Shown: in pieces, positions 3,269-48,407 of the stretch
Layout of the letters: every line of letters starts with the position of its first letter
How positions within the stretch are numbered: the first letter of the stretch is position 1
Assembly (NCBI GenBank): GCA_963788205.1
Contig: CAWBGG010000007.1
Location: 378,732-442,731, forward strand
Length of the DNA: 64,000 nt
Source of the DNA: an uncultured delta proteobacterium
GTDB taxonomy: Bacteria > Desulfobacterota > Binatia > Binatales > Binataceae
Reading direction: 5' to 3'
The notes under the pieces: generated by a model
What the model saw: only the letters and a program-made list of their open reading frames with translations
Told to the model about the DNA's origin: nothing
Databases searched by the model: none
Program-made: the position numbers and the translations under genes

Positions 3269-3291
3269 AGAGGTGTTACGAGACACGCACA

Positions 3292-6746: not shown

Positions 6747-6958
6747 CGGCGCACACCACGCGCGCGCGTGACAATCGTGAAGGAGACGTTTACAACCGGA
6801 GTCGAACTGCCCGCTACCCGGCGGAGGGAATCATGACTTCACAGCCGGCGGCGCGCAGTACCTAATCGACGTGCGATGGCTTCGGGGCATCGTTACGGGG
6901 AGACCGACGCCGGTCCAAATCCCATAGTTGCACGGTTTTATCGGATTGCCGCAGCGTC

Positions 6959-10095: not shown

Positions 10096-10183
10096 GACTC
10101 GACGTGGCCGCGAATCTCGATTAAACAGGATTCGGTTCGGGGAGTAAGCAAACTTGCGCGGACTTTCCTGCTATCGTGCTGCA

Positions 10184-11362: not shown

Positions 11363-11412
11363 CGCTGCGGTTGCGTCGAACGACGCGCGCCGTCCGCGAG
11401 CGATCGTGGCGC

Positions 11413-15768: not shown

Positions 15769-15831
15769 TTTCAGAATAGCAAATGTTTGCCGAAGACGCG
15801 GCCGGCTGATGGGCCGGCTGGTTGGGGGCTG

Positions 15832-16461
15832 ATGACGATGATCAAATGTGGTGAATGCGGCTACGAGAACATGGACGGCTTGGATTACTGCGACGGATGC
15901 GGCGCCAAAATAACCGCGGCGGCCCCTTCGGGCGACGGCGCGATCGCGCCGGCCGCTGAGGCACCGCCCACGGAACCGGCTGCGCCGAGCGCCTCCGATG
16001 CGCCCACCGGCGAAATAAAGCCTCCGCCCGAGCCTGCGCCTGCCGCCGAAGGCGCCGCGCCGCCTCCGGAAGCGCCGCCGCCTACACCGGCCGCTCCTCC
16101 GCCTGCCGGGGCGGTGCCGCAATTCAAGGCCAAGTTCGAGGTCACGCGCGGCGGCCGCAAGGGCCAGGAATTTCCGCTCGAAGACGGCAACAACTTCATC
16201 GGCCGATGGGACCCGGAGACCGGCTCGTTCCCTGAAGTCGACCTCGAGCAGGATGATCCCGAGGCCAAAATTTCGCGCAAGCACGCCCTGGTTAGAATCG
16301 AGAACGGCAAAATCACGGTCGAGGACATCGGCAGCCTCAACGGAACCTACGTCAACCGCCAGCCGCGCCTGCAGCCGGGATCGCCGGTCGAGATCAAAAC
16401 GGGCGACGAGATTATCATCGGTAAGACTTTCTTGAAGCTGGTGGTCGAACCCATTTCGTAG
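15832..16461 (+). CDS. zinc-ribbon - Pro/Ala-rich linker - FHA domain protein
   Basis: CGECGY...CDGCG ribbon. FHA signature FIGRWD...ISRKHALV...DIGSLNGTYVN. Confidence 0.75.
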   Translation: MTMIKCGECGYENMDGLDYCDGCGAKITAAAPSGDGAIAPAAEAPPTEPAAPSASDAPTGEIKPPPEPAPAAEGAAPPPEAPPPTPAAPPPAGAVPQFKAKFEVTRGGRKGQEFPLEDGNNFIGRWDPETGSFPEVDLEQDDPEAKISRKHALVRIENGKITVEDIGSLNGTYVNRQPRLQPGSPVEIKTGDEIIIGKTFLKLVVEPIS

Positions 16462-16540
16462 CGCGCCGGCTTCGACGGCCGGCCACGGCCGTTGGCCGCG
16501 AGGCCGCATCTTCGATGCGCCCGGCTGAAAATCTGAATTC

Positions 16541-18295
16541 GTGATGAAACCGGGTGACCCCGTACCCGCCGGCCATCTGCTCGACGGCCGATACCGCGTT
16601 AACAAGGTAATCGGCCAGGGCGGCATGGGGCGCGTCTATATGGCCAACGACACTCGTCTGGCCAACCGTCCGGTCGCCGTCAAGGAGATGATCGTCGATG
16701 CCGGCGGCGAGCAGGAAAAAAAGGCCATCGAGGACTTCCAGCGTGAGGCGAGCGTGCTCGCCGCGTTGACGCATCCCGGCATCCCCAATCTCTTCGACAA
16801 TTTCATCGAGAACGGCCGCCATTACCTGGTGATGGAGTTCGTTGCGGGCGGAGATCTTCAGGCGATGCTCGACCAGCTGGGCCCGCGCGCGCGTATCGAG
16901 GAAGCGCGGGTGCTCCGCTGGGCACGCCAGATTCTCGACGTGCTGGTCTTTCTGCACGCGCAGAAGCCGCCGATTATCTATCGCGACTTCAAGCCCGGCA
17001 ACATCATGATCGACCGGCACGGGCGCGCGATGCTGATCGACTTCGGAATCGCGCGCTTTCTGCCGCCCGGCGGGCGCGGCACTCAAATCGGATCGATCGG
17101 CTACGCGCCCCCCGAGCAATACATGGGCAAGGCGGAGCCGCGCTCGGACCTCTACTCGCTGGCGGCCACGATGCATCATCTGCTCACCGGGCGCGATCCG
17201 CAGTTGGAGCCGCCGTTCAGCTTTCCGCCCGCGCGCCAGCTTGCACCCGAGCTCTCGCCCGCTACGGAGCGGGTGATAATGAGCGCGCTGGATAAAGACG
17301 CCGCCAAGCGCCCGGCCTCCGCCAAAGAGATGCTCGATCGGCTGCCGGTCCCGCCGCCAGCCGAAGAGGAAGCCCCGACATTAGTTGGCGCGCCGATGCG
17401 AGCGGCGCCCTCGATCGCGGTGATGCCGACGATTGCGCTCTCCAGGCCCGTGGCCGCCGCCCCGGCGACGCCGGCGCCGCGTGCGCCGGCACCGGCGAGC
17501 GTGTCGTCCGCGTCCTCGATGCCGACCATCGTCCTGACGAATCCAGTTTCGGTCGCGGCGGCACCTGCGCCCGAGCCGGCCACGCCGATGTCGACCGCGC
17601 TCGAAAAGATCGCGGGACTCAAGCGCCTGGCGCGCTTCGCCACTCCGCGCATCCTCAAAACCCCGCCGGTGCGCACCGAGCCTTCTTCATCGCGAGCGCG
17701 CGTTTCATCGACCGCCAAAACCCAGGAGCTCAAGGGCAGCGGCGCCAAAGCCACGCCCTTGCACTCCCGCAGCGCGGCCAATTCCGCGTCATCGCCGCGC
17801 CATCCGAAGCGAGGCTCGGCGCCGCACACCCCCAGCTCGTCGAAGCCGGCTAGCGCACCGTCGAAGCCGGCCGCGGCGGTCAAAAAGGCCAGCGCGGCGA
17901 CGCCGCGAGCGCTCCCGCCGTTGCCGGTCGCGGCCAACGGCAAATCCGGTAAATCCGGTGCGGCGCTCGACGGACCTCGGCTGGTATGCAAGGCGGAGCA
18001 GGCCGAGTTTGGGCTCTGCGGTGAGCGAATCGTGATCGGCCGGGTGGCGGCATCGGCCGACGGCGCCGATATCGATCTCGACTTGTCCTCGCTCAAGCGC
18101 AGCGGCGAGCGAATTTCGCGCCGCCATGCCGAGATAATCCGGCTCGGCAAGGACTACTTCATCCGGGACCTGGGCAGCCTCAACGGGACTTTCATCGCGG
18201 GACGCGGCCGGCTGGGACGCGATCAACTCTACAAATTGAATGACCGCGACGAAGTCTTGCTGGGCGGCGCCAGGTTGGAGTTCCGCAAGGGATGA
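16541..18295 (+). CDS. Ser/Thr protein kinase with C-terminal FHA domain
   Basis: Kinase motifs GQGGMGRVY, VAVKEM, IYRDFKPGN (YRD instead of HRD), DFG, APE. C-terminal FHA with ISRRHAEI...DLGSLNGTF. Probable GTG start. Confidence 0.8.
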   Translation: MMKPGDPVPAGHLLDGRYRVNKVIGQGGMGRVYMANDTRLANRPVAVKEMIVDAGGEQEKKAIEDFQREASVLAALTHPGIPNLFDNFIENGRHYLVMEFVAGGDLQAMLDQLGPRARIEEARVLRWARQILDVLVFLHAQKPPIIYRDFKPGNIMIDRHGRAMLIDFGIARFLPPGGRGTQIGSIGYAPPEQYMGKAEPRSDLYSLAATMHHLLTGRDPQLEPPFSFPPARQLAPELSPATERVIMSALDKDAAKRPASAKEMLDRLPVPPPAEEEAPTLVGAPMRAAPSIAVMPTIALSRPVAAAPATPAPRAPAPASVSSASSMPTIVLTNPVSVAAAPAPEPATPMSTALEKIAGLKRLARFATPRILKTPPVRTEPSSSRARVSSTAKTQELKGSGAKATPLHSRSAANSASSPRHPKRGSAPHTPSSSKPASAPSKPAAAVKKASAATPRALPPLPVAANGKSGKSGAALDGPRLVCKAEQAEFGLCGERIVIGRVAASADGADIDLDLSSLKRSGERISRRHAEIIRLGKDYFIRDLGSLNGTFIAGRGRLGRDQLYKLNDRDEVLLGGARLEFRKG

Positions 18296-18345
18296 GCGCA
18301 AGGGCTATGATCGAAAAGGAAAGCCTACTTGGGAAGCCTATTTGA

Positions 18346-20385
18346 ATGATCACTTGTCCTGAATGCGGCTTCGCGGCCGGTGACGAAGCGAAATTCTGCG
18401 ACCGATGCGGCCAGGGACTGACTCGCGCCGCTGCGCGGCCGCCGTCGCTGCCGCCGCTCAGCCCCGGCGCCACACTCAAGGGCGGCTTCCAGATCGTCGA
18501 GTTGCTCGGCGCTAACTCCGCCGAGAATCGGTACCGTGCGACGCGCAGCGTGGACGGCGAGAACCAATCGTTCCAGCTTCGCGAGCGAATGGGGCCGGCC
18601 ACCGACCCGGAAGCGCACGAGGAGACGCCCGAGGCCGCGACCGCGAGCATTGCGGATAGAGCGGCATCGAGCACCGCGGATGATCCGAGCGGGCCGCGCG
18701 CCAAAACGCGTGATCTCAAGCCGTCCGCAGCCGCGCCGGCACCGTCGCGAGCCGAACCGGTCGCGCCCCCGTCGGTCGATTCGGAGCTGCATAGCGCCGA
18801 GGCTCCGTTGGGTTCGCCCGAGGTCGATGACGGATCGGGTGCCGAGCCGATCGTCCTGATCGAGACGGTAGCCGAAGGCGCCGCAGACGGTGCGAACCCG
18901 GCGCAAGACGCGCCCGCCGATCCGACCGGCGCGGATTCGTCTGTGGCCTCGGAGCCCCCACCGCCGGACGATCTCGGTGACGTCTTCGGCCGCGTGCTCT
19001 CGCTTTCGCAGACGATTAAGCATCCGGCGTTCCAATGCGCGCTTTCCGGATTCGCCCAGGATGGGCGCGTCTACCTGGTGTATCGCGACGAGAGTCCGCC
19101 ACCGCTCGCGGCGCGAGCCGGCGGTCTGCGGATGAGCGAGCCCGAAGCTATCGGGCTTGCGATCCAGGTGTGCCAGGCGGTCTCGGCGCTCCATCGGCGG
19201 GGCCTGCGGGTCAACGACATCTGCCCGCAATCGATCGTCATCGCGCCCGACGGCCGCGTGAAGCTCACCGGCCTGGATTACGTAAGCAACGACACCGAGC
19301 TGCAGTCCGACCCGATTTTCAACGACGGTTACACCGCGCCCGAAATCTACAAGGGCAGGCGGGCCGACAAGCGCGCCAACGTCTTTTCGGTCGGCGCGTT
19401 GCTTTACACCTGCCTGACGGGCGAGCGTATCGAGGCCGAAAGCTGGCTCGAAGAGGCGGGCGCGTTGAACTTCTACCCGCCGCATGTGGTCTCGCCCGCC
19501 CTCGAACAGGTGATTCGCCGGGCGCTGGCCTTCAATCCCGGCGAGCGATGGCCCACCGCCGACGCGCTCAAGACCGAGTTCATCAAGCTCGGCAGCACGA
19601 TCACGATTCGCGCCGCAGCCCTGACCGACGTGGGCCTAGTACGCGAACTGAACGAAGACGCGGTGATGGCGCTCCAGTACTCGCGGCAATCCCAGATCGA
19701 GCCGGCCGAAAGCTATCTCTACCTGGTAGCCGACGGGATGGGTGGGGCGGAGGCGGGCGAAGTCGCAAGTGCAATTGCCGTAAGAGCGATCCGGGAATAT
19801 GTTGAGAGCAAGCTCGCAGCCGAGGAAACCGCCGGCCCTTCCAGAGGAACCGCTGATCTTTGCGGACTGCTCAAGGACGCTCTCGAAGAAGCCAATCGCA
19901 GGATCCTCGATCATCAGGCGGCGAACCCGGAATTGCGCGGTATGGGATCGACCGCAGTCAGCGCATTGATTCTGCCGCCCGAGGCGGCCGTGGCCTGGGT
20001 CGGCGACAGCCGCGCCTACCTGAGCGACGCTGCGGGTATCCGCCAACTCACCAAGGACCATTCGCTGGTGCAGCGCCTGATCGAGATCGGACAGTTGACC
20101 CCGGAACAGGGGCGCAGCCACGAGCACAAGAACGTGATCACGCGATCGCTCGGCGCGCGGCAGAGCGGACCGGCCGGCGCCGAAGCCATCGCGATTCGGC
20201 TCAAGCGCGGCGACCGGATGGTGCTGTGCAGTGACGGCTTGACCACCCATGTCGAGGACCATCCGATCGGCGAAATCGTGCGCCGCCACAATGATCCTTA
20301 TGGGGCGGCACGTGAGCTGATAGTGGCCGCCAACGCCGGCGGCGGGACCGACAACATTTCAGTGGTAGTAATTTACGCCGAGTAG
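18346..20385 (+). CDS. zinc-ribbon - pseudokinase-like domain - PP2C Ser/Thr phosphatase fusion
   Basis: CPECGF...CDRCG ribbon. The kinase-like fold lacks the Gly loop and VAIK, and has LRVNDICPQS and LDY in place of HRDLKPxN and DFG. PP2C motifs LVADGMGG, GSTAV, VGDSRAY, SDGL, GGTDNISVVV are present. Confidence 0.75.
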   Translation: MITCPECGFAAGDEAKFCDRCGQGLTRAAARPPSLPPLSPGATLKGGFQIVELLGANSAENRYRATRSVDGENQSFQLRERMGPATDPEAHEETPEAATASIADRAASSTADDPSGPRAKTRDLKPSAAAPAPSRAEPVAPPSVDSELHSAEAPLGSPEVDDGSGAEPIVLIETVAEGAADGANPAQDAPADPTGADSSVASEPPPPDDLGDVFGRVLSLSQTIKHPAFQCALSGFAQDGRVYLVYRDESPPPLAARAGGLRMSEPEAIGLAIQVCQAVSALHRRGLRVNDICPQSIVIAPDGRVKLTGLDYVSNDTELQSDPIFNDGYTAPEIYKGRRADKRANVFSVGALLYTCLTGERIEAESWLEEAGALNFYPPHVVSPALEQVIRRALAFNPGERWPTADALKTEFIKLGSTITIRAAALTDVGLVRELNEDAVMALQYSRQSQIEPAESYLYLVADGMGGAEAGEVASAIAVRAIREYVESKLAAEETAGPSRGTADLCGLLKDALEEANRRILDHQAANPELRGMGSTAVSALILPPEAAVAWVGDSRAYLSDAAGIRQLTKDHSLVQRLIEIGQLTPEQGRSHEHKNVITRSLGARQSGPAGAEAIAIRLKRGDRMVLCSDGLTTHVEDHPIGEIVRRHNDPYGAARELIVAANAGGGTDNISVVVIYAE

Positions 20386-20412
20386 GCGTCAATAGCTGGT
20401 AGAATAATTGCG

Positions 20413-22764
20413 ATGACGAGCCAGCCGCCCAACAATCCCGATTCCGCCGCCACGGCGCCGCTGGCCGCCGGGGTCGTCCTTCAGAATCGCTACCTGATCG
20501 AGCGCCTGATCGGCGGTGGCGGAATGGGGATGGTCTATCTGGCGCGCGACCAGCGCTTGTCCAACCGGCCCTGCGCGATCAAGGAGATGGTCGATCACTT
20601 CATCGACCCGCAACAGCGCCTGGAAGCCAACGAATATTTCGCCCGCGAAGCCGACACCCTCGCCCAACTGAAGCATCCCGCGATTCCGGCGATCACCGAC
20701 CGCTTCGACGATCAGAACCGCCATTACCTGGTGATGGAGTACGTCGAGGGGCGCAACCTCGAGGAGGAGATCGCGGTCAACGGCGGTCCGTTCGCCGAGG
20801 GACTCGTGATCGACATCGGGCGCCAGTTGTGCGACGTGCTCGCCTACCTGCACAGCTTCACGCCGCCGGTCGTGTACCGCGACATGAAGCCCTCCAACGT
20901 GATGCTGACGCCCAAGGGACGGGTCGTGCTGATCGATTTCGGCATCGCGCGGCTGTTCCGCGCCGCGCGCAAGGGCACGATGATCGGCACGCTGGGCTTC
21001 GCGCCGCCCGAGCAATACCAGGGGATGGTCGATCCGCGCAGCGATATCTACTCGCTGGCGGCAACGCTGCACTACATCCTGACCGGGCGTGACCCGGAGA
21101 AGTTCCCGCCCTTCAGCTTTCCGCCGGTGCGCGAGTTGCGTCCCGAGGTCTCGGGCAACCTGGCCGGCTCGCTCGACATGGCGCTGGCCTACAAGCCCGA
21201 AGATCGCCCGCAAGCGGTTCAGGAATTCCGCGACATGATGCTCTACGGGCGCGGCGTGGCGGCCACCGGGCGCGTCAGCTCCAAGAGCGGCACCGCCGGA
21301 ATCGCGCCCCCGCCAGTCCCGGACGAAGACCTCATCCCGATCCGGCCGCGGTCCCGGAACACCTTCGCCAACGCCGCAAAGATGGCAGTGGTGCTGCTGA
21401 TGCTGGGGACGGTCGCGTTCGGCGCCACGTATATTTATTCGAGTCCGGCCCTGCAGATGCAGCTCGGGATCAAGCCGCTGATCGACAAGCTGCCGTGGCG
21501 TCACGAAGAATTGCTCGCCGCGGCCCGCGACCATCCACTCGAGTTCGCCCGCATGACCCTCCAGCTCTCGACGCGCGAGGGCGCGCCGCTGTCGCCGCCC
21601 AAGGCCTCTTTCACCGACGCGGAGCTTTCCGACGCGCGCTACCTGAAATGGGACGCGACCTTCACCAACCATCTTTCGGGGCTCGAGGGACGCTCCGACA
21701 AGGTCGAGGCGCGCTTCTTCGATCCCAGCGGACTGCAAGTCGCTTCCACCAACGTCGAGCGCTTCGTCGGCCCCGACGAGAAAACCATAGACTTCAGCGG
21801 CGTCGCGCTGGTGCCCGATCTCTCCGATCGCCCGCGCGGCGATTACAAGGTGAATCTCTCGCTGGGCGATCAGAGCCTGGCCGAGCAGCGCTTCTCGATC
21901 ACCGAAGATCTGGCGAGCAAGGCCAGGGCCGCGGCGGCCAAGGCGGCACGCGAAGCCGCGGCGCGCGAGGATCAGGAGAAACGCCTGGCGGCCGAGCACC
22001 GGCTGGCGATGATCGAGGAGCGCAAACAGAAGCCGCTGCAACTGGTCGATATCCACTTCGTCAACAGCACCAAAACCGGCACGCCGCTCTCCAGCCCGGC
22101 CGACAATTTCGACCCCGCCAAGGTGCTGTTTGTCGACTGGGAGGTCAGCTTCCAGAACCGGCTCTATAAGCTCGACAACAATCAGTACCGGGTCAACGCC
22201 GCCTACGTGGCGCCGGACGGACGCACGCTGGGCAGCGTCTACGACACCCGGATGGTTCCGGAATCGCTGCGCGAAGTCACGTTCAGCGGACGGGTCGGCA
22301 ACTCCAGCGGCGGAGCCTTCATTCCCGGCACCTACACTGTGACGTTTTATCTAAACGGCCAGTATCTGGCGGAGCGGAAGTTCCGCGTCGGTTCAGCCGA
22401 GGCGCTCAACGGCGGCGAAACCACCAGCATGGTGTCGCCCGGCGCCGCGGCGATCAGCCTCGACTCGCCGACGCTGGCCAGCGGCAATATCAGCGGGCTG
22501 GCCGGCAAGAGCAGCATCCCGATCGAGCTCCGGCTGAGACCCCAGCCCAACGGCTTTCTGCACGGCGAGCTGGTAATTCACGAAACCGGTTACGGACTCA
22601 CGCCCATCGAAGGCTATATCCGCGGCACCCATCTCTCGTTCCAGGTCCCCTATCGCGGCGAGACCCTCTACTTCGAAGGCGAGCAGAGCGGCGCCGGCCT
22701 GCAGGGAACCTTCGAGGGCGCCCCGTCAGGCGAACACGGCACCTGGACCGCCCGCCCGTCGTGA
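20413..22764 (+). CDS. membrane-anchored Ser/Thr protein kinase with large extracytoplasmic C-terminal domain
   Basis: GGGGMGMVY, CAIKEM, VYRDMKPSN, DFG, APE. One predicted TM segment (MAVVLLMLGTVAFGATYIY) followed by about 450 aa of non-cytoplasmic sequence. Confidence 0.8.
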   Translation: MTSQPPNNPDSAATAPLAAGVVLQNRYLIERLIGGGGMGMVYLARDQRLSNRPCAIKEMVDHFIDPQQRLEANEYFAREADTLAQLKHPAIPAITDRFDDQNRHYLVMEYVEGRNLEEEIAVNGGPFAEGLVIDIGRQLCDVLAYLHSFTPPVVYRDMKPSNVMLTPKGRVVLIDFGIARLFRAARKGTMIGTLGFAPPEQYQGMVDPRSDIYSLAATLHYILTGRDPEKFPPFSFPPVRELRPEVSGNLAGSLDMALAYKPEDRPQAVQEFRDMMLYGRGVAATGRVSSKSGTAGIAPPPVPDEDLIPIRPRSRNTFANAAKMAVVLLMLGTVAFGATYIYSSPALQMQLGIKPLIDKLPWRHEELLAAARDHPLEFARMTLQLSTREGAPLSPPKASFTDAELSDARYLKWDATFTNHLSGLEGRSDKVEARFFDPSGLQVASTNVERFVGPDEKTIDFSGVALVPDLSDRPRGDYKVNLSLGDQSLAEQRFSITEDLASKARAAAAKAAREAAAREDQEKRLAAEHRLAMIEERKQKPLQLVDIHFVNSTKTGTPLSSPADNFDPAKVLFVDWEVSFQNRLYKLDNNQYRVNAAYVAPDGRTLGSVYDTRMVPESLREVTFSGRVGNSSGGAFIPGTYTVTFYLNGQYLAERKFRVGSAEALNGGETTSMVSPGAAAISLDSPTLASGNISGLAGKSSIPIELRLRPQPNGFLHGELVIHETGYGLTPIEGYIRGTHLSFQVPYRGETLYFEGEQSGAGLQGTFEGAPSGEHGTWTARPS

Positions 22765-24278: not shown

Positions 24279-25160
24279 CTACTTCTTTCCCGCCGCGCGG
24301 CGGCGTTCACCGCCGGAGCGCGCGGCTCGCGCATGCGCCTTGGCCGCGGACTGCTGCTCGGCCTGCTGCGTTTCGGGCGCGGCCACGCCGCGCTTGTCGA
24401 GCGAAGCCTTCAGCGCGGCCATCAGATCGATTACCTGGCCGCGGCGCGGCTCGGCCGGCGTGCCGACGGCCTGCTGGCCCGCGACCTTCTGCTGCGCTGC
24501 TTCGAGCACCCGTTCGCGATAGCTGTCGCGATATTGGGAAGGGTCGAACTTGTCGTGGGTCAGCTCGTCGATCAGCCGTTTCGCCAAGGCCAGCTCCGCT
24601 TCCTTGGCCGCCTCGTTCGCAGCGCGATCGACTTCCTCGACCGGCTTGACCTCGTCGGCATAGTAGACCGTATGGAGCATCAGGCCCTTGGCATAGGGGC
24701 GGATCAGGATCAGATGTTCCTTGCCGCGCAGCGTGTATTTCCCAAGCGCAACACGCTTGCTCGACATCATCGCGTCGCAGAGCAGGCGGTAGGCTTTGCC
24801 CGCTCCCGGCTCGGCGCCCAGATAGTACGAATCCTCGAAGTAGATCGGATCGACCGCCGACAGCGGTACGAACTCGGTTATTTCGATCGCGTGGTCGTCG
24901 CGCGCTTCGAGGTTCTTGAGTTCCTCATCGGTGAAGGTGACGTAGCGGCCCTTCTCGATCTCGTAGCCCCGGACCAGCTCGCTGCGATCGATGATCGCGT
25001 CGTCCACGGGGCAGTAGATTTTCTGCTGGATACGGCTTAGGTCCTTGGCATGCAGCAGGTTGAAGCTCACCGACTTGGCAGAGGTCGCGCCGAACAACCT
25101 GACCGGGATGGAAACCAGACCGAAGGAAATATTGCCACTGCTGACGGGCCGTGCTGCCAT
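24279..25160 (-). CDS. ku: Ku protein (NHEJ)
   Basis: ISFGLVSIPVRLF N-terminus and Ku core, with a basic C-terminal tail. Confidence 0.85.
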   Translation of the reverse strand: MAARPVSSGNISFGLVSIPVRLFGATSAKSVSFNLLHAKDLSRIQQKIYCPVDDAIIDRSELVRGYEIEKGRYVTFTDEELKNLEARDDHAIEITEFVPLSAVDPIYFEDSYYLGAEPGAGKAYRLLCDAMMSSKRVALGKYTLRGKEHLILIRPYAKGLMLHTVYYADEVKPVEEVDRAANEAAKEAELALAKRLIDELTHDKFDPSQYRDSYRERVLEAAQQKVAGQQAVGTPAEPRRGQVIDLMAALKASLDKRGVAAPETQQAEQQSAAKAHARAARSGGERRRAAGKK

Positions 25161-38811: not shown

Positions 38812-39603
38812 ATGGATGACAGCGCCGTCAGCGCTCTGGCCGACGAGCTGTACTCGGCCTTGCGCGCGCGCTCGACCGTGGCTCCGCTCAGCGAACGCCA
38901 TCCCGACATCACGATCGCCGATGCCTATCGCATCTCGCTCCGGATGCTTGAGCGGCGCACCGCCGACGGCGAGCGCGTGATCGGCAAGAAAATCGGCGTG
39001 ACCAGCCGCGCGGTGCAGGAGATGCTCGACGTACATCAGCCCGACTTCGGCTTCCTGACCGACGCGATGCGCTATCCCGACGGCGCGACGATAAGCATCC
39101 GCCGGGCCGGGTTGATCCAGCCGCGCGCGGAAGGCGAGATCGCTTTCATCCTGAGCCATGACCTCGCCGGATCGAACGTCACCGCCGCCGACGTGCTCGA
39201 CGCCGCCGAAGCGGTGATGCCTTGCTTCGAGATCGTCGACTCGCGGATCGCGAACTGGAAGATCAAGATCGAAGACACCGTGGCCGACAACGCTTCGTGC
39301 GGCGTCTTCGTGCTCGGCCAGGCGCGCGTCGATCCCAAGGGACTCGACCTGGCCTCGGTGCGGCTCGAAATGTTTCGCAACGGAGAGCCGGTCGCTTCGG
39401 GACTCGGCTCGGCGGTGCAGGGGCATCCGGCGGCGGCGGTCGCATGGCTCGCCAACACGCTGGGCAAGTTCGGTATCCCGTTCCGAAAGGGCGAGATCAT
39501 TCTTTCCGGTTCCCTGGTGCCGCTGATCCCGGCGTCGGCCGGCGATAGCTTCGAACTGTCTATCGGCGGCATCGGCGGAGCCTCTGTCCGATTCGCCGAT
39601 TGA
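38812..39603 (+). CDS. mhpD: 2-keto-4-pentenoate (2-oxopent-4-enoate) hydratase
   Basis: MhpD/BphH/HpcG-family pattern over the full 263 aa. Confidence 0.8.
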   Translation: MDDSAVSALADELYSALRARSTVAPLSERHPDITIADAYRISLRMLERRTADGERVIGKKIGVTSRAVQEMLDVHQPDFGFLTDAMRYPDGATISIRRAGLIQPRAEGEIAFILSHDLAGSNVTAADVLDAAEAVMPCFEIVDSRIANWKIKIEDTVADNASCGVFVLGQARVDPKGLDLASVRLEMFRNGEPVASGLGSAVQGHPAAAVAWLANTLGKFGIPFRKGEIILSGSLVPLIPASAGDSFELSIGGIGGASVRFAD

Positions 39604-39850
39604 CTAGTACGCTATTAGTTCAAAATGGAAATTCCGGCTTAATGGCGCAATTGCCGTCCAGCGATGCGACACTGACGCAAGGGGGTGGATTTTGCGCTAT
39701 GGCTGCTGTACTTCCCCAGCAACGCCATTCCAAAGGCACCCGCGAGTGCGAAAAGAAGATAACTCCGTCTCAACGCTGCCTCCCCATATTGTATCCGGGA
39801 TTTCCGTTTTGACACCTCGGATTAAGATGATAATTAGTACAGGTTCCCCT

Positions 39851-40801
39851 ATGAAAGTTACCATGGACCGAAAATGTTGGGGTTTCACGCCTCCCGGCGT
39901 CAAAGCATGCTGCAGGCAGTGGTTTTGCCTATTAGTTGTCGCAGGGTTTCTAACTGGCTGTGCGTCAACCGGCACGTCAGCGTATCGCAACCCTAACTTT
40001 GACCAGAGCAAATCTTACCGGGTAGCAGTTTTCCCATTCCGCGATGCGCCTCAAGCTCCCGGAAGTGGCGATGCGCTGTCAACCATATTTGAAGGTACGC
40101 TTTTGGCAAGTGGTGGAAGGTTCGAACTGGTTGACCGTGGAGAAATAGAGCGGATTTTGCGCGAGCACCATGCGGGTGTCAATGGGATGGGGGCCGGTGT
40201 CGGCGGGGATCGTCCGGATTATGTACAAGAATTTGAGGATCCGGTTGGAGTCGGTAAACTACTCCGGGTTGACCTTGTTGTTGTGGGTACGGTAACAAAA
40301 TGGCAGGACTTGCCAGGCAGACCCTCGGTCGCAGCTTTAGTCAAAGCGGTTAGCGTAGAAAAAGGGGTTGTTGTTTGGTCTCTGGATCAGTTTACGGATG
40401 ATGCGCCTCATAACCCCGTGGATTTTGTGGCTTCCAAGCTTTGCCGCCAAATGATCGCCACGTTGGTGGGAAAGAATCCGATCGCCTTGTGGCATACGAA
40501 ATCCGAAGGCGCGGAGCTGGAGCTTGGTTCAACAAACACGCTGGTGTATCGTAACCCCAACTTTGACCAAAGCAAATCGTACCGGGTAGCAGTTTTCCCA
40601 TTTCACGACGCGCCTCAAGCCCCCGGAAGTGGAGATAGGCTGTCAAGCATATTTGAAAGTACACTTTTGGCCAGCAGTGGAAACTTCGAAGTCGTTGAGC
40701 GTGAAGAAACAGAGCGGAGTTTGCGCGAGCGCCATCCGGATGTCAATGGGATGGGGGGCCGGTGCCGGAGGGGATCATCCGGATTATCGACAAGAAGTTG
40801 A
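39851..40801 (+). CDS. CsgG/LpoB-like lipoprotein, copy 1, fused in frame to a signal-less partial copy 2 that then frameshifts
   Basis: Lipobox FLTGCAS. Core YRNPNFDQSKSYRVAVFPF(R/H)DAPQAPGSG...IFE.TLLAS.G.FE.V.R.E.ER.LRE. After copy 1 the frame runs through ...IALWHTKSEGAELELGSTNTLVYRNPNFDQ... into a second core with no stop, then goes out of frame at a run of 6 g (5 g in copies 1 and 3). Confidence 0.6.
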   Translation: MKVTMDRKCWGFTPPGVKACCRQWFCLLVVAGFLTGCASTGTSAYRNPNFDQSKSYRVAVFPFRDAPQAPGSGDALSTIFEGTLLASGGRFELVDRGEIERILREHHAGVNGMGAGVGGDRPDYVQEFEDPVGVGKLLRVDLVVVGTVTKWQDLPGRPSVAALVKAVSVEKGVVVWSLDQFTDDAPHNPVDFVASKLCRQMIATLVGKNPIALWHTKSEGAELELGSTNTLVYRNPNFDQSKSYRVAVFPFHDAPQAPGSGDRLSSIFESTLLASSGNFEVVEREETERSLRERHPDVNGMGGRCRRGSSGLSTRS

Positions 40802-41048
40802 GGATCCAGTTGCTGTCGGTAAACTTCTCCGGGTTGACCTTGTTATCGTGGGCACGGTAACAAACTGGACTCAACGTCAGGCATTCGGATCCTCGGTCGG
40901 AGCTTCTGTCAAAGCGGTTAGTGTAGAAAAAGGGGTCGTTGTGTGGTCTTTGGTTAAGTCTACGGAACACCATTACGCGATCAACGTCGTGGCTCGCAAG
41001 CTTTGCAGCCAAATGATCGCGGCATTGGTGGGTAAGAATCCGAATTAG
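40629..41048 (+). pseudogene. out-of-frame C-terminal remainder of lipoprotein copy 2
   Basis: This frame encodes GAGGDHPDYRQEVEDPVAVGKLLRVDLVIVGTVTNW...ARKLCSQMIAALVGKNPN, homologous to the C-terminal halves of copies 1 and 3. Confidence 0.6.
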
Positions 41049-41060
41049 AACTGTTCCCCT

Positions 41061-41705
41061 ATGGAGGCTACCATGCACCGAAAGTGTTGGGGCTTCGGGC
41101 CTGCCAGCGTCAGAGCATTCTGCAAGCAGTGTCTTTGCCTATTGGTAATCACAGGGTTTCTAACTGGCTGTGCGTCAACCGGCACGTTGGTGTATCGCAA
41201 CCCTAACTTTGACCAAAGCAAATCTTACCGGGTAGCAGTTTTCCCATTCCACGATGCGCCTCAATCCCCCGGAAGTGGAAATGCGCTATCAACCATATTT
41301 GAAAGTACACTTTTGGCGAGCGGTGGAAAGTTCGAAGTGGTTGAGCGTGGAGAAATAGAACGGATTTTGCGTGAGCGCCATCCGGATGTCAATGGGATGG
41401 GGGCCAGTGTCGGCAGGGATTCTGGACAAGAATTCGAGGATCCGGTTGCGGTCGGTAAGCTTCTCCGGGTTGACCTTGTTATTGTGGGCACGGTAACAAA
41501 CTGGACTCAAGGTGTGCAAGCAGGCTGGGCTACTTTTTCCACTACCGCGGTCGGAGCTTCTGTCAAAGCGGTTAGTGTGGAAAAAGGGGTTATTGTTTGG
41601 TCTTTGGATCAGTCTGCACAGCCTGCTTGGGTCCTTACCGGGCCGGTGGATGCTGTGGCTCGCAAGCTTTGCCGCCAAATGGTCGCGACATTTGTGGGAG
41701 AGTAA
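41061..41705 (+). CDS. CsgG/LpoB-like lipoprotein, copy 3 (intact)
   Basis: 214 aa. Same leader (ttcccctatg...ccatg), lipobox and core as copy 1. Upstream sequence is also duplicated. Confidence 0.7.
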   Translation: MEATMHRKCWGFGPASVRAFCKQCLCLLVITGFLTGCASTGTLVYRNPNFDQSKSYRVAVFPFHDAPQSPGSGNALSTIFESTLLASGGKFEVVERGEIERILRERHPDVNGMGASVGRDSGQEFEDPVAVGKLLRVDLVIVGTVTNWTQGVQAGWATFSTTAVGASVKAVSVEKGVIVWSLDQSAQPAWVLTGPVDAVARKLCRQMVATFVGE

Positions 41706-41889
41706 TTGTCCAATGTTGTGAATCGGCCGGTGGACCGAGGCGAACTCCGTCGACGAACTTCACGCCCGCACGGACCAGAGACAAGAGGGTGGCGCCGTCG
41801 AGGCGCCGCCAGCGCTGCTGGGCCATGTCGAGCAGCTTGAACGCCATCAGCAGTGCCTTGGTTCTTGAATCGGCGCGCCAGGCGGCTCG

Positions 41890-41957
41890 GTGAATTTTTA
41901 CGTGAGCGACGACGACAGCACGCCGACGTGGGGCAGCGCCGATTACCGGCACCAGTA
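41890..41957 (+). pseudogene. relic 3-prime fragment of a kinase paralog
   Basis: tttttacgtgagcgacgacgacagcacgccgacgtggggcagcgccgattaccggcaccagtag encodes FYVSDDDSTPTWGSADYRHQ*. It is nearly identical to the last 20 codons of the next gene (FYVSDDGSTLTWGSNSYRRQ*), and has the same stop-to-start junction. Confidence 0.65.
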
Positions 41958-41973
41958 GCGGGAGAGGAACGTC

Positions 41974-44163
41974 GTGCTTTCAGCAGGCTTCGTACTGGCC
42001 GGCCGCTACCGCGTGATTCGCTTGCTCGGCGGCGGCGGAATGAAGCGCGTCTATCTCGCCGAAGACGCGGGGCAAGCCGCACTGCGGCGCGTGGTAGTCG
42101 AGCCCGCGAACGATCCTGGCGAGCCGCAAGCGCGAGAACAGGCATCCGCAGGGCTCCAACTGAAAGCACAAGCGCTGGAGCCCCTTCGCAACGGGCACCT
42201 CGCCCAGTTGCTCGAGTTCCTTACTGAAGACGGCCGCCTCTACCTAATCCGCGAGTACGTAGAAGGCGAATCGCTAGAAGAGCGAATCAGGAGGATGCCG
42301 AAGACCGGTTTGGCGCCTGAGTTCGTAATCGGCCTCGCGCTCCAGATTCTGGACGGCCTGGTTGTTCTGCATGGACTCGATCCGCCGTTCATCTATCGCA
42401 ACCTCAAGCCCTCCAACGTGATCATCGGACCGGAGGGAGTTGCGAAGCTGGTCGATTTCGGCCTTGCGCTCGACCTCGCGCCGCCATCTCTGGCCACAAA
42501 AATCGGCGCGCGGCCATACTCCGCGCCCGAACAGTACGAGCGTCGCGACGGGCCACAGAGCGATCTCTACGCGCTCGGCGCGATCATGCACCACGCGCTG
42601 TCGGGCCGCGATCCCGTCAAATCGGCGCCGTTTCGGTTTCAGCCGCTCGAGCGGCTCCGTCCGGACCTGAATCCCGATCTCTGTAAGCTTGTTGATCGCT
42701 CGCTGGCCTTCAACGTAAACGAGCGCGTCCCGTCCGCCCAGTTCTTCAAGGATTCTCTCCTCGCCATCAAGGCAGGCCAGCCGCTGCCGGCTTTCGCCCC
42801 GGCGCAGGCGCCTGCGTCGCCGGTCGCGGCGCAGCCTGGCGCAGCGGCGCCCGCGCGACCGCGCTCGCGTCGCGCGCCCTGCCCGCACTGCCAACGACGA
42901 ATCCCGCGCGACGCGCGCACCTGCCCTTACTGCGCGCGCAACGTCGCTACGGGCGAGATAGGCGTAGGCGCGTCCTCATCAGGGCGAAAGATCCCCGCGG
43001 CTGCGATAGGCATTGCCGCCGTCGCGGCTGCCGTGGTCGCAGGCGTGTTCATCCTCAGGCCTGATCATGCGTCCAGTCCAGCGGTGCGGCAAATTGCCGC
43101 TCCCGCTTCGGTCCCTTCGCATTCGGCGGCTGAGGCCGAAGCGGAAGCGCATCGGCTCGCGCTCGCGCGGCAGTTCGACGCCGACATGGCGGCGTTTCGC
43201 GGCGCCGAGCCGTCCAGCCACTCACGAGAGAGACTCCGCCGGACGATCATAGCCGAGGGTGTTAACATGAATCCGCCGCCGGGTCTGCCCCAGGACGCAC
43301 TGCAACATCTCGATCGTGGCGATGCCGATCTCAAGGCGCGCAACTATGCCGAGGCGGCCGGCGAGTTTCGCGAGGCGCTGGACGAGGCGCCATGGCTGGC
43401 GCAGGCCTATCGGGGTCTCGCCCGGGCACGCGAATCAGCCGGCGATCTGGACGGCGAGATCGAAGCCTCCAACGACTATTTGCTCGCCTCACCGCAGGCG
43501 TCCGATGCGCTGGAGGTGAAGGCGCATGCCGCAGCGTTGGGCCAGCGAATCTTCGCAAGTCAGAGCGACGCCGCCTTGCGCAACGAGATCCAGGCCCTAC
43601 AAGTCAAGCAGCAGGAGGAGGAGGCGGAGCAGGCGCGAATTCGGGCGCAGGAGCAGGCCGAGGAAGAGGCCCGTCAAGAGCAGCAGCGGCAGAACCAGCG
43701 CCAGCAGGCCGAGCAGCAGCGCCAGCAGGTCGAGCGGGAGCAACGGTGCCGGGAAAACTTCGTCGGAAGGTGGGGAGAGTACGACGTCGAGTGCTGCGGC
43801 GAAAGACGTTCGGGCGCGACCTCTTTTTTACCGCCCGGCTCCGGCGGCAGACCGATTCAGGGGCTGGGAGGAGTATATCAGATCGACCTCGCCGGCAAGC
43901 AGCTACAAGTTTATCGGGTGCTTGGGGTAAAGTGCAGCCGTGCCTGCGAATCGACCGGTCTGTATCAAACCAGCGAACTCGTGTTCGACGGTACCCTCAC
44001 CAATCAACGCACGAATTGGAGCGGCAACTGCAGCTTCACAGCTACCGGCGAGATTCATCACTTCGACCCTTTTGAGGCAGTGCCCATCGACTCGGTGGAC
44101 TTTTACGTCAGCGACGACGGTAGCACGCTGACGTGGGGCAGCAACAGTTACCGGCGCCAGTAG
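41974..44163 (+). CDS. transmembrane Ser/Thr kinase-like protein, predicted pseudokinase, with zinc ribbon, TPR-like and coiled-coil periplasmic region
   Basis: GGGGMKRVY is present. The beta-3 Lys is lost (RRVVVEP). The catalytic loop reads IYRNLKPSN (Asp to Asn). DFG and APE are present. CPHC...CPYC ribbon, then a TM segment, then a TPR-like segment, a Q/E/R-rich coiled coil and a Cys-containing C-terminal domain. GTG start. Confidence 0.75.
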   Translation: MLSAGFVLAGRYRVIRLLGGGGMKRVYLAEDAGQAALRRVVVEPANDPGEPQAREQASAGLQLKAQALEPLRNGHLAQLLEFLTEDGRLYLIREYVEGESLEERIRRMPKTGLAPEFVIGLALQILDGLVVLHGLDPPFIYRNLKPSNVIIGPEGVAKLVDFGLALDLAPPSLATKIGARPYSAPEQYERRDGPQSDLYALGAIMHHALSGRDPVKSAPFRFQPLERLRPDLNPDLCKLVDRSLAFNVNERVPSAQFFKDSLLAIKAGQPLPAFAPAQAPASPVAAQPGAAAPARPRSRRAPCPHCQRRIPRDARTCPYCARNVATGEIGVGASSSGRKIPAAAIGIAAVAAAVVAGVFILRPDHASSPAVRQIAAPASVPSHSAAEAEAEAHRLALARQFDADMAAFRGAEPSSHSRERLRRTIIAEGVNMNPPPGLPQDALQHLDRGDADLKARNYAEAAGEFREALDEAPWLAQAYRGLARARESAGDLDGEIEASNDYLLASPQASDALEVKAHAAALGQRIFASQSDAALRNEIQALQVKQQEEEAEQARIRAQEQAEEEARQEQQRQNQRQQAEQQRQQVEREQRCRENFVGRWGEYDVECCGERRSGATSFLPPGSGGRPIQGLGGVYQIDLAGKQLQVYRVLGVKCSRACESTGLYQTSELVFDGTLTNQRTNWSGNCSFTATGEIHHFDPFEAVPIDSVDFYVSDDGSTLTWGSNSYRRQ

Positions 44164-44174
44164 GGAAGAATCGC

Positions 44175-46106
44175 ATGCTTGCAGCAGGCGTCGTATTGGC
44201 CGGTCGATACCGTGTCGTGCGTCCGCTCGGCGGCGGCGGGATGAAGCAGGTCTATCTCGTAGAAGACACGCGGCTCGCCAATCGCCCCTGCGCGCTGGCC
44301 GAGATGATCGACAGCTTCTCCGACCCCAAGGAAGCCCAGGCCACCGCCGCGGCTTTCCAGCGCGAAGCCGAAATGCTCGCAAGCCTGCGTCATGATCAAA
44401 TCGTCGTCGTTCACGACCGCTTCAGCGAGCAGAACCGCCACTACCTGGTGATGGAGTACGTCGAGGGCGACACGCTGGAGCAGAAGCTTGCGGCTGCTCC
44501 GGGCAATCGGCTGGACGAGAAGCTTATCACCGATGTCGCGCTGCAAATAACCGACGCGTTAGAATATCTGCACCGCCATAATCCGCCGGTCGTTTACCGC
44601 GATCTCAAGCCGGCCAACGTGATGCTCACCCCGGATGGGCGGGTGAAGCTGATCGATTTCGGCATCGCGCGGCTGTTCGTGCCCAAGAAGACCGCAACGA
44701 TGGTTGGGACCCAAGGCTACGCGCCGCCGGAGCAGTACGAGGGCAAGGCCGAGCCGCGGAGCGACCTCTATGCGCTCGGCGCGACGATGCACCATCTGCT
44801 CACGGGCCGCGATCCTGGCACCCAAGTGCCGTTCAGCTTTCCGCCGGTCGGTGGCCTCCGGCCGGACTGTGATTCGCGCATCGCCGACCTGATCGACGAG
44901 TCGCTCAGATACAACCTGGCCGATCGGATCACGAGCGCCTCAGAGTTCCGCAGGCGGCTAGAGAACATCAAATCACCGTCGGGCGGGTTCAGGCCGGCTG
45001 CGGCAGCATCCACGCCGACGCCGTCGGTTTCCGCTCCGCCGTTCGGCGGAGCGGTCACGGTGACGACGCTGATTCAGGCCAGACAGTGCCCGCGCTGCAC
45101 GCGCGGCGTTCCGGTCAACGCGGTCGTATGCCCCTATTGCAGCGCGCGACTGGGGCACACTGCGGTCTCGGCCGGGAAGCGCCGCCGATGGCCGCTCGCT
45201 GTTGCCTCGCTGGCCGTTGCCTTCGGAGCGGTGTTCGCCGGAGCCTATTACTACGAGAATATCTACCTGCCGCAACCGCGGCCGGCCGCCGGGCAGCAAG
45301 CGCACGCGGCACCCGAAGCGCAACCGACGGCTGCCCGGCGTGAAGCGGCGCCGGAACAGCCGCGTCCCGAGAACGCCGCCATCGCGGAGCGGAATGCAAA
45401 TCTCAGTGCGCAACTCGCCCAGGACGTAACTGCGCTCCAGCGCGCCAAGGCAGGCTCTGCGAAGGAGAAGTGGTTGCGCGAGGATGTGATCTCAGCGGCG
45501 CTGCAGATGAGTCCGCCGCCGGCAGTGCCCGACGACGCCCGGAAGCTTATCGATCAAGGAGAGGCGGCCCTGAAGGTCGCAAGCACGGCGGGCGAATATC
45601 GCAAGGCGGCGGTGGAGTTGAATCGGGCGTTGAAGCTCGCCCCGTGGTATGCGCCCGGCTACACAGCGCTGGCGGACGCGGAGGAGGGGGCGAACGATCT
45701 CGATGCGGCGGCTTCGAGTCTAAGGGCATATCTGATTGCCGCGCCGACCGCCGCGGACAGCGCGAGCGTCAGCGCGCGCATCTCGGAGCTTGAGCAACAG
45801 GCGGTCCAGCAGCGGCAGCAGGCGGCGGAACAGCGCAAGCTTGCCGAACTCAAGAAGCAGCAAGAGCAGAAGCAAGCGGAGATCGACAAGGAGCGGCAAG
45901 AAGAAAAGCAGCCTCGGAACGAAGAGCAGACACAAGACAAATACAAGGCTGCCGCGGAGGCTGATTGCCGAAGGGAGCACGCTGCGGTGAACGCATATTT
46001 GTCCTGCCTACAACGATGGCCTCATGACCTCGATCGCTGTACTGACGCACCTCCCCTTTTTCACGACTGCGAGTATCTCTATGAGAAATATGGTGAGCGG
46101 CTTTAA
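44175..46106 (+). CDS. transmembrane Ser/Thr kinase paralog (beta-3 Lys replaced) with zinc ribbon, TPR-like and coiled-coil periplasmic region
   Basis: GGGGMKQVY, CALAEM (Lys to Ala), VYRDLKPAN, DFG, APE. CPRC...CPYC ribbon and a TM segment. Overlaps the upstream gene by about 30 nt. Close paralog of the kinase at 20413. Confidence 0.75.
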   Translation: MLAAGVVLAGRYRVVRPLGGGGMKQVYLVEDTRLANRPCALAEMIDSFSDPKEAQATAAAFQREAEMLASLRHDQIVVVHDRFSEQNRHYLVMEYVEGDTLEQKLAAAPGNRLDEKLITDVALQITDALEYLHRHNPPVVYRDLKPANVMLTPDGRVKLIDFGIARLFVPKKTATMVGTQGYAPPEQYEGKAEPRSDLYALGATMHHLLTGRDPGTQVPFSFPPVGGLRPDCDSRIADLIDESLRYNLADRITSASEFRRRLENIKSPSGGFRPAAAASTPTPSVSAPPFGGAVTVTTLIQARQCPRCTRGVPVNAVVCPYCSARLGHTAVSAGKRRRWPLAVASLAVAFGAVFAGAYYYENIYLPQPRPAAGQQAHAAPEAQPTAARREAAPEQPRPENAAIAERNANLSAQLAQDVTALQRAKAGSAKEKWLREDVISAALQMSPPPAVPDDARKLIDQGEAALKVASTAGEYRKAAVELNRALKLAPWYAPGYTALADAEEGANDLDAAASSLRAYLIAAPTAADSASVSARISELEQQAVQQRQQAAEQRKLAELKKQQEQKQAEIDKERQEEKQPRNEEQTQDKYKAAAEADCRREHAAVNAYLSCLQRWPHDLDRCTDAPPLFHDCEYLYEKYGERL

Positions 46107-46358
46107 CGGCAACACGAGGAACAAGGATTCTCAACCGGCGAAATTCGCGTTCAAGCAGCGAACCCTTGCCGTCCCATTCCCGTCCCAATCAGCGGTACAC
46201 GGTTATTTCCGGTTAAAATCAGGTGCGCGCTGAACTCTGAGCAGATGCGATCGGCTACCGGCGTTGCCGGCGGGCCGGCTCTTTACGGCTTGGAACAATT
46301 CTGGGAAAAAACCATTAGTCAATCATTCGCAGATCTGCCGTCCGGCGGAGATCGGGAC

Positions 46359-47378: not shown

Positions 47379-48407
47379 ATGTACTTGCGCGGGAAGAAAA
47401 TCATCCTGCACGACATGACGTTGCGCGACGGGATGCATCCGAAGCGCCATCAGATAACGCTCGATCAGATGAGATCGATCGCTGTCGGGCTCGACGAGGC
47501 GGGCGTGCCGCTGATCGAAGTCACTCACGGCGACGGCCTGGGTGGCGCCTCGATCAACTACGGCTTCCCGCGCCATTCGGATCAGGAGTATTTCGCCGCG
47601 GTGATTCCGCTCCTCAAGCACGCCAAAGTCTCCGCGCTTTTGGTGCCGGGAATCGGCACGGTCGATCACCTGAGAATGGCGCGCGAAGCGGGCGTGTCCA
47701 CAATCCGGGTCGCCACTCACTGCACCGAGGCCGATGTCTCCGAACAGCATATCGGCCTGGCGCGCGAGCTGAAGATGGATACGGTGGGCTTCCTGATGAT
47801 GGCGCACATGGCGGAGCCTGACAAAATCCTCGAGCAGGCAATGCTGATGGAATCCTACGGCGCCAACTGCATCTATGTCACCGACTCGGCGGGCTACATG
47901 CTGCCCGACCATGTGCGCGCCCGGTTCGGCCCGTTGCGCGAGAAGCTCAAGCCGGAGACCGAGCTTGGCTTCCACGGCCATCACAACCTCGCGATGGGAG
48001 TCGCCAATTCGCTTGCGGCGATCGAATGCGGAGCAACCCGTATCGACGCAGCCGCCGCCGGCCTCGGCGCCGGCGCCGGCAACACGCCGATGGAGGTGTT
48101 CGTTGCGGTCTGCGAGCGGATGGGGATCGAAACCGGCGTCAACGTATTCAAGATCGCCGACGTGGCCGAAGACCTGGTCGTGCCGATCATGGACACGCCC
48201 GTGCGCATCGATCGCGACGCGCTGACGCTCGGCTACGCCGGCGTCTACTCGACGTTCCTGCTGTTCGCCAAGCGGGCCGAGGCCAAGTATCGCGTTCCGG
48301 CGCGGGAGATTCTGATGGAGCTGGGACGGCGGCGCATGATCGGCGGCCAGGAAGACATGATAGAAGACACCGCGCTCACGATGGCGCGTGAGCGCGGCCT
48401 GCTGTAA
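47379..48407 (+). CDS. mhpE: 4-hydroxy-2-oxovalerate aldolase
   Basis: [23 protein letters not shown] and DSAGYMLP motifs of DmpG/MhpE/BphI. Confidence 0.85.

Follow-up and report, generated by a model that had tools for sequence, protein, structure and literature searches.

A kinase gene remnant beside a predicted pseudokinase-kinase gene pair in an uncultured Binataceae bacterium

How does the tail of a protein kinase gene come to stand by itself directly in front of an intact relative? The question arises in a 64,000-nucleotide (nt) stretch of DNA from an uncultured delta proteobacterium of the Binataceae (GenBank assembly GCA_963788205.1, contig CAWBGG010000007.1, positions 378,732 to 442,731), which we call the window and number from its first base. 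Two neighbouring forward-strand genes, here A and B, encode membrane proteins with kinase-like domains, and upstream of A lies a short partial duplicate of A's own 3′ end, which we call the stub. A sequence-only reading of the window had proposed that A and B descend from an array of at least three head-to-tail copies, the leftmost of which was deleted except for its 3′ tip, probably when a block of lipoprotein genes arrived. We find that the stub is an ordinary rearrangement scar and not a new kind of element. Below we set out what was copied, how the scar may have formed, and what kind of genes stand beside it.

The stub (41886-41958, + strand) is 73 nt long and corresponds to the final 24 codons and TAG stop of an A-type gene. 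Aligned without gaps to the end of gene A (44091-44163), it is identical at 62/73 bases, in the same frame, with TAG ending both sequences. blastn reports 84% identity over 76 nt (41883-41958 against 44088-44163, E=7e-19), and the best ungapped score, 40, compares with 11.0 ± 1.2 (maximum 18) in 300 dinucleotide-preserving shuffles. The stub was also recovered by tblastn of protein A against the window (E=7e-5), and a repeat search of the window lists the match independently, as family D7. Chance similarity is ruled out by the shuffle and blastn statistics. An assembly artefact is ruled out by the 15% difference between the stub and A, since assembly duplication would not produce copies that differ to this degree; in addition, the left junction of the insert described below recurs in an independent contig. 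The likeness first noticed by eye is therefore real and not confined to a few matched codons; it includes the stop, the Shine-Dalgarno (SD) spacer and the start context, and the translations given with it were correct. Its extent needed correction: the relic described as 68 bp from 41890 is a remnant of 73 nt, followed by a 15-nt spacer.

To the left of 41886 similarity drops abruptly, with 10/24 identities in the preceding 24 nt. To the right the match runs on from the spacer into the head of the gene that follows (family D6, 41964-42078 against 44165-44279, 77% over 115 nt). The spacer between the stop of the stub and the GTG of A (41959-41973, + strand, 15 nt) bears the SD-like motif GGGAGAGG; by alignment it is homologous to A/B spacers, and 10/15 of its bases are identical to the 15-nt spacer of a related locus, L017, described below. 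Between A and B the spacer is 11 nt long (44164-44174, + strand, GGAAGAATCGC), with the SD-like motif GGAAG. The genes had been thought to overlap or abut one another at a shared stop/start junction, which these spacers of 15 nt and 11 nt contradict. An in-frame TGA (41863-41865) lies just 5′ of the stub, and therefore no long open reading frame (ORF) crosses it; the sole in-frame start within it is GTG 41890. By these features the stub is non-coding now. It displays the hallmarks of a pseudogene fragment, namely significant collinear similarity, an abrupt end, the lack of an intact ORF and, as shown below, relaxed substitutions.

If a whole kinase gene once stood to the left, further degraded coding signal might be expected there, and a search for it in 41706-41890 had been suggested. 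Searches of this interval by tblastn with A and with B found none. What occupies it is an internal fragment of an IS256-family transposase gene (41707-41868, - strand, ~160 nt, residues ~370-424 of ~427). The minus-strand peptide encoded there, SRTKALLMAFKLLDMAQQRWRRLDGATLLSLVRAGVKFVDGV, matches IS256-family transposases in 281 plasmid records by tblastn and aligns to residues 370-424 of an annotated IS256 transposase of 427 amino acids (49% over 55 residues, E=3e-8). The identification came from tblastn; a Pfam scan of the 105-residue minus-strand ORF gave no match at E<0.01. The peptide resembles the C-terminal ~55 transposase residues of the family, and differs from a complete element in that ~13% of the transposase gene is left, without the catalytic (DDE) region, a stop codon or inverted repeats. 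Because the stop, the N-terminal ~370 codons and the terminal inverted repeat are all missing, the fragment must have been cut at both sides, and no second piece of the transposase was found elsewhere in the 64-kb window. Its right-hand neighbour is the stub and its left-hand neighbour the stop of the last lipoprotein gene (41705). The lipoprotein block thus does not adjoin the breakpoint, as had been assumed: the stub meets a doubly truncated insertion sequence (IS) fragment, and the lipoproteins begin one junction further left.

The nature of the stub depends on that of the two complete genes. Gene A (41974-44163, + strand) starts with GTG and encodes 729 amino acids, with Pfam matches to Pkinase (E=9e-25), a zinc ribbon and tetratricopeptide (TPR) repeats. 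From the N-terminus the protein comprises a predicted pseudokinase domain, the zinc ribbon, one transmembrane (TM) helix (~340-362), a TPR-like region, a Q/E-rich coiled coil and a Cys-rich C-terminal domain. Gene B (44175-46106, + strand, ATG start, 643 amino acids; Pkinase E=1e-40) has a similar layout of Hanks-type kinase, zinc ribbon, TM helix, TPR-like region and coiled coil, but its short Cys-rich tail does not resemble A's; its start is fixed by the homology of the MLxxG head across five lineages. Scores against Pkinase (PF00069) are 88 bits for A and 140 bits for B, and the gathering cutoff is 31.7. Overall the two proteins are 37% identical, alike in layout and different at their C-termini. 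The Cys-rich C-terminal domain of A, ~140 residues long (window 43729-44160) and absent from B, has no Pfam match and is very rare, with three matches when 1.84 billion representative proteins were searched exhaustively with HMMER. An AlphaFold2 model of this domain made without an alignment was unusable (mean predicted local distance difference test score 35).

The pair recurs elsewhere. At L017 a gene A′ (10001-12172), 56% identical to A, is followed by a B-type gene that starts 15 nt later, and at L019, equivalent to L020, A′′ (L019 7507-9678), 63% identical to A, is followed by a B-type gene after 13 nt. The L023 copy of the A-type gene is cut to codons ~418-729 (3061-3984), with an in-frame stop upstream, and a B-type head begins 8 nt after it. 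At L024 the A-type gene (5420-6597) has lost the kinase domain and the zinc ribbon, leaving a short N-terminal part, a TM helix and the ectodomain, and its B-type neighbour is 82% identical to B; the spacer there is ~11 nt as read from the sequence, in an assembly that is frameshifted. The junction of tail, SD spacer and head can be aligned across L017, L019/L020, L023 and L024. The low A/B identity, the distinct C-termini and the presence of the same pair and junction in other lineages mean that A and B are not the young head-to-tail array of the original proposal. They form instead an old, differentiated pair also present in four other uncultured lineages, a caution that tandem paralogues need not be recent copies. 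When GTDB genome contigs were scanned with protein A, the matches were all remote kinases (23-33% identity) and no related locus appeared; for A, B, P0001 and the third lipoprotein gene, exact-sequence database look-ups gave no record.

Two of these loci carry truncations of their own. The A-type gene of L023 is a second, independent 5′ truncation, and there too the junction was spared. Upstream of A′′-B′′ in L019 lie two relics of kinase 5′ ends (5492-5584 and 6629-6727), one with an in-frame stop. The neighbours of these relics, identified by eye only, are a patatin-like gene (5634-6609) and a likely VapBC-type toxin-antitoxin pair (6842-7416).

With the relatives in hand, the origin of the stub can be read from both of its ends. 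Its nucleotide identity is 85% to the A tail of this genome and 74-77% to the A′ and A′′ tails, and third-position differences number 3 between stub and A as against 7-12 in the other tail comparisons. Being nearest to the A of its own genome, the stub stems from a duplication that postdates the split of these lineages; it is an A-type sequence produced by a lineage-specific duplication. Its mode of change also sets it apart from functional tails. Between the A and A′ tails the differences fall 1/1/12 by codon position (alignment A3; 1/1/11 when ungapped), with 22/24 residues in common, and third positions of functional tails vary freely (9-12/24 differ). Between stub and A the spread is 3/5/3, and the stub alters residues that are invariant in the five functional tails (DDG>DDD, TLTW>TPTW and RRQ>RHQ). 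The even spread and the altered invariant residues indicate that the stub is drifting without selection.

The right end of the copied segment lies inside gene A. Codons 1-9 of A (41974-42000, + strand) are of B-type origin: the first 27 nt match three B-type heads at 23/27, 22/27 and 21/27 positions, and the A′ and A′′ heads at 15/27 and 11/27. A uses the B-type codons TCA-GCA where A′ has AGC-CCT. Third positions of A and B are identical in 9/9 of codons 1-9 and then in 1/6 of codons 10-15, which places the switch at codons 9-10; from about nt 25 onward A matches A′′ (GCCGGCCGCTAC). Taken together, the matches to an A tail, a spacer and a B head show that ~115 nt, from 41886 to ~42000, were copied from an A/B junction, and that today's A is a chimera whose B-type part is confined to the very 5′ end. 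We also considered whether A had recently taken its whole head from B. Synonymous-site identity across the first 30 codons, 18/24, does not clearly exceed that of other conserved blocks, and this candidate was rejected; the lack of a clear synonymous excess over 30 codons implies that the copied tract is short.

How did a copied A/B junction come to be placed in front of A? The account we lean towards, with somewhat better than even confidence, is that a full extra A-type copy arose and was then deleted in place except for its 3′ tip. The order of events would be as follows. The ancestral module would have consisted of A, a membrane pseudokinase, and then B, a membrane Ser/Thr kinase, after a gap of 8-15 nt. 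Unequal crossover between the head of B and the head of A offers the simplest route to a duplication, since it is at their 5′ ends that B and A match best at the nucleotide level. The product would have read A1, spacer, a fusion of B head codons 1-9 to the body of A, spacer, B, and the present A would be the chimeric middle gene. A later deletion would have run from inside an IS256 transposase gene to a point 73 nt before the end of A1. Surviving deletions would be those that spared the downstream SD spacer and start; because a deletion that reached into either would shut off the gene that follows, survivorship is enough to account for the retained 3′ tip. These parts all belong to a 6.7-kb mosaic block inserted in the intergenic region between a hydratase gene and an aldehyde dehydrogenase gene, described below.

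This history has familiar counterparts. It resembles Lepore/anti-Lepore-type chimeras and IS-associated deletions in its chimeric middle gene, duplicated junction and abrupt scar beside an IS fragment. It differs from IS-associated deletions in that the deletion did not begin at an IS terminus and the fragment lacks both ends, and from tandem-array remnants in that the full three-gene intermediate was not found. The recurrence of truncated kinase genes in related loci (the A-type gene of L023 and the head relics of L019) speaks for it.

Several observations weigh against it. The crossover is deduced from just 27 nt and the 15-nt spacer. The A-type orthologue of L017 also starts MLS.G, so that part of the resemblance between the A and B heads could be ancestral. 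Third-position divergence between stub and A (3/24) is somewhat below the neutral expectation from the 8 first- and second-position changes. An IS fragment cut on both sides does not fit a canonical IS-end-mediated adjacent deletion. Neither more degraded kinase coding signal in 41706-41885 nor an intact array in relatives, either of which would have indicated that more than the junction was duplicated, was found: protein, genome and metagenome searches turned up no intact three-gene array, and a search of 5.8 billion proteins no intact extra A-type protein. The proposal of a lost duplication that left its tip behind holds; that of three or more full head-to-tail copies is not proven, ~115 nt of A/B junction being what is demonstrably duplicated; the former existence of a complete third gene we infer.

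A single patch copy would yield the same final structure, and this is the last point against a deleted third gene. Here no third gene would ever have existed: a double-strand break just 5′ of A or inside its 5′ end, linked for instance to IS256 activity, would have been repaired from one end by way of the B head, copying leftward into the A tail, and then closed by non-homologous joining inside the IS. We consider this the strongest of the alternatives, if distinctly the less probable course. It accords well with the ~115 nt that are demonstrably duplicated, with an abrupt, non-homologous left junction inside the transposase gene, and with the failure to find a three-gene array in any collection searched. 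End joining is made plausible by a Ku homologue encoded in the window (24279-25160, - strand; PF02735, E=7e-47), from which the organism probably has non-homologous end joining, a capacity relevant to illegitimate junctions such as that at 41885/41886. Set against this, the one-ended event is mechanistically complex, and the whole-gene truncations of L019 and L023 make a full copy followed by deletion unexceptional.

A third possibility concerns the way in which the whole block reached its present site, and requires a description of that site. To the left lies a gene for 2-oxopent-4-enoate hydratase (38812-39603); to the right lie genes for acetaldehyde dehydrogenase (ATG at 46359) and, downstream of it, 4-hydroxy-2-oxovalerate aldolase (47379-48407). 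The same genes are adjacent in two close relatives, L021 and L022, where the dehydrogenase and aldolase genes come 17 nt (L021) and 53 nt (L022) after the hydratase gene. The hydratases of these relatives are 90% and 89% identical to that of the window, and nucleotide identity in the flanks is 85-91%. Given this adjacency, window positions ~39624-46311 (6.7 kb) are an insertion in a catabolic operon. Within it lie the three lipoprotein genes, the IS256 fragment, the stub, genes A and B, and 205 nt of unassigned sequence.

The ends of the insertion are marked by a short repeat. The left copy (39611-39623, GCTATTAGTTCAA) directly follows the hydratase stop, with the insert starting at ~39624; after the right copy (46312-46322, CCATTAGTCAA) the ancestral intergenic sequence and the dehydrogenase gene resume. 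The ancestral intergenic motif of L021 and L022, CCTGTCAG(T/G)CAA, is present on both sides of the insert, and both copies carry the derived ATTAGT. The repeat is thus an apparent target duplication of ~11 bp (~11-13 bp), and the left junction is reproduced at 100% in an independent Logan contig, L025. No terminal inverted repeats were detected at the ends of the 6.7-kb block (score 17, against 16.4 ± 2.1 in shuffles). A longer duplication at the ends was considered and set aside, since its score of 35 is not significantly above the 31 ± 5 of shuffles. No intact mobility genes lie inside the insert, and the 205 nt between the stop of B and the right target copy (46107-46311) contain no ORF, RNA-family match or assignable repeat.

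The left part of the insert is taken up by three tandem CsgG-like lipoprotein genes (39843-41705, + strand), recognised from their ORFs and the Pfam CsgG domain. The copies are 74-88% identical (repeat families D1-D3 and D5) and spaced by ~565 and ~650 nt; the middle one, which has a frameshift and no signal peptide, is read through from the first. Their G+C content is 51-54%, against 61-72% around them, and this low value together with the IS scrap fits a mosaic built by several joins. The kinase genes, too, are newcomers at this site: they belong to the same 6.7-kb insertion, so that the arrival of lipoprotein genes in a resident kinase array, as first pictured, is not the simplest history.

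From this arrangement follows the third possibility, that the extra copy existed only at a donor locus and that the left breakpoint of the moved segment fell 73 nt before the end of the upstream A-type gene. Positions 39624-46311 are indeed an insertion with respect to two close relatives, flanked by one short duplicated target, and the block is a mosaic in which 52%-GC and 62-72%-GC parts are joined through IS scrap. Divergences can be compared roughly. Over ~12 nt the two target sequences show 1 mismatch and 1 indel, an estimate of ~10%, which is of the same order as the 15% between stub and A, and the divergence among the lipoprotein copies (74-88% identity) is of that order as well. The stub, however, lies 2.3 kb inside the insert, behind the lipoproteins and the IS fragment, so that at least one extra junction is needed, and a donor array was not found in the databases searched. 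Truncation during the move is accordingly doubtful in our judgement, the more so beside the patch copy.

Finally, could the stub have been kept because it does something for A? All genes of the insert are oriented like the operon that they interrupt, and GGAG-type SD-bearing spacers of 8-15 nt are conserved in five lineages. From the layout, A and B are plausibly co-transcribed and translationally coupled, possibly by termination-reinitiation. The promoter scan found no sigma-70-like promoter upstream of A. The sole terminator-like hairpin on the + strand (44084-44098) is weak and lies inside A, and such sites are fewer than in shuffles. Rfam searches (E<=0.1, 38-48 kb) and a tRNA scan found nothing, and RNAalifold found no conserved RNA structure across the junction. 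A role of the stub as a cis-acting leader for A, whether as a 22-codon upstream ORF from GTG 41890 ending 15 nt before A, an RNA element or a promoter, is very improbable: the independent truncations in this window and in L023, both of which leave an A-type 3′ end before the next kinase, the tight SD-bearing junctions of the five lineages and an in-frame GTG preceded by a weak AGGCGG motif would suit it, but the RNAalifold energy of -12.3 kcal/mol comes with an unfavourable covariation term, the free third-position variation of functional tails (9-12/24) reveals no extra constraint at the nucleotide level, the stub is changed at residues invariant elsewhere, the missing promoter tells against that form of it, and survivorship accounts for retention without function. 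A cis-acting role of the stub is, in sum, unlikely.

The stub is a datable scar. It shows kinase genes in these uncultured bacteria duplicating, forming chimeras and becoming truncated, and the pair moving as part of inserted DNA. In itself the stub carries little weight. The gene pair is the more interesting by-product of the analysis.

The two partners differ in their motif states. In all three full-length A-type proteins the catalytic Asp is replaced by Asn (YRN in A, YGN in A′ and YHN in A′′), and the αC Glu and β3 Lys are missing as well; gene A has RRVVVE at β3 and KAQAL at αC and keeps DFG. With pseudokinases defined by sequence as lacking at least one of the β3 Lys, the HRD Asp and the DFG Asp, the A-type proteins count as conserved pseudokinases. 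Gene B keeps YRD, DFG, APPE (A(P)PE in the B type) and the αC Glu (REAEML). We would predict A to be catalytically inactive and B to be active.

The β3 lysine is missing in A and also in B, which has Ala in its column (CALAEM) and a Lys, Lys23, occupying the third Gly position in its glycine loop (GGGGMK). Two canonical paralogues elsewhere in the window show the usual state, GGGGMG...CAIKEM and GQGGMG...VAVKEM. The state of B is seen in 62/64 of the best-scoring proteins of the homologue search, and weaker matches, below the best 64, have GGGGMG...ALK. A is among the 62; the other 61 clusters, all within these 64 best-scoring proteins, point to a kinase type that is probably widespread in Binataceae-like bacteria.

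This arrangement is that of the WNK ("with no lysine") kinases, whose catalytic-lysine mechanism is summarised in PMC12599244, which cites Min et al. 2004. B is 29% identical to human WNK1 (E=8e-27), in an alignment for which the WNK1 sequence was checked against PDB entries; Lys23 of B aligns with Lys233, and its Ala with Cys250. GGGGMK of B thus corresponds to GRGSFK of WNK1, and ALAEM to AWCEL. In contrast to WNK, B lacks the WNK accessory domains and is bacterial and membrane-anchored. Its nearest solved relatives in a PDB search are the bacterial StkP, PknA and PknB (E ~1e-34 to 1e-29), and no WNK kinase is among its best 60 PDB matches. Since B is closer to StkP, PknA and PknB than to WNK, the resemblance reflects convergence and not common descent, and the "with no lysine" active site of B appears to be convergent with that of WNK. 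We found no report of a WNK-like lysine shift in bacteria in the full-text literature searched, and an earlier description may exist. A review of bacterial pseudokinases mentions WNK solely as a eukaryotic comparison and includes no bacterial family with the Lys moved to β2 (PMC12599244); the A-B pair matches none of the bacterial pseudokinase families named there.

In overall design A and B resemble PknB/StkP-like receptor kinases, with an N-terminal cytoplasmic kinase domain followed by one TM helix and a sensor part outside the cytoplasm. They depart from these kinases in lacking the β3 Lys, with a Lys in the glycine loop in its place, in having a zinc ribbon between kinase domain and TM helix, and in an ectodomain made of a TPR-like region, a coiled coil and a rare Cys-rich domain rather than PASTA repeats.

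A precedent for neighbouring kinase genes within an operon is pknA-pknB of Mycobacterium. A closer parallel may be the pseudokinase-kinase pairs STRAD-LKB1 and HER3-HER2: full-length A-type ORFs are conserved in three lineages, each time with a catalytically intact paralogue immediately downstream. Unlike those pairs, A and B are known here as gene neighbours, from sequence alone. The A-type protein of L024, which has no pseudokinase domain, suggests that the ectodomain, and not the pseudokinase, may be the essential part of an A-type protein. We tentatively picture a two-gene signalling module, a possibility to which we give less than even weight, in which a pseudokinase, or simply a TM-ectodomain protein, would act as sensor or regulatory partner of a kinase active through its relocated Lys, and the tight junction would be the coupling point that keeps expression stoichiometric.

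The locus offers a natural example of an ATP-binding Lys moved as in WNK, with canonical sister genes in the same window and a partner, catalytically dead by sequence, next door. If biochemistry agrees, it could provide an independent bacterial test case for the "with no lysine" site and for the roles of pseudokinase partners.

A second Ser/Thr signalling cluster lies at 14461-22764 (+ strand). It comprises a VWA protein, an FHA protein with an N-terminus that looks zinc-ribbon-like by eye, a canonical kinase, a kinase-FHA fusion and a fusion of a degenerate kinase to a PP2C phosphatase, whose N-terminus is likewise zinc-ribbon-like by eye. The kinase domain of the canonical kinase in this cluster is 56% identical to that of B.

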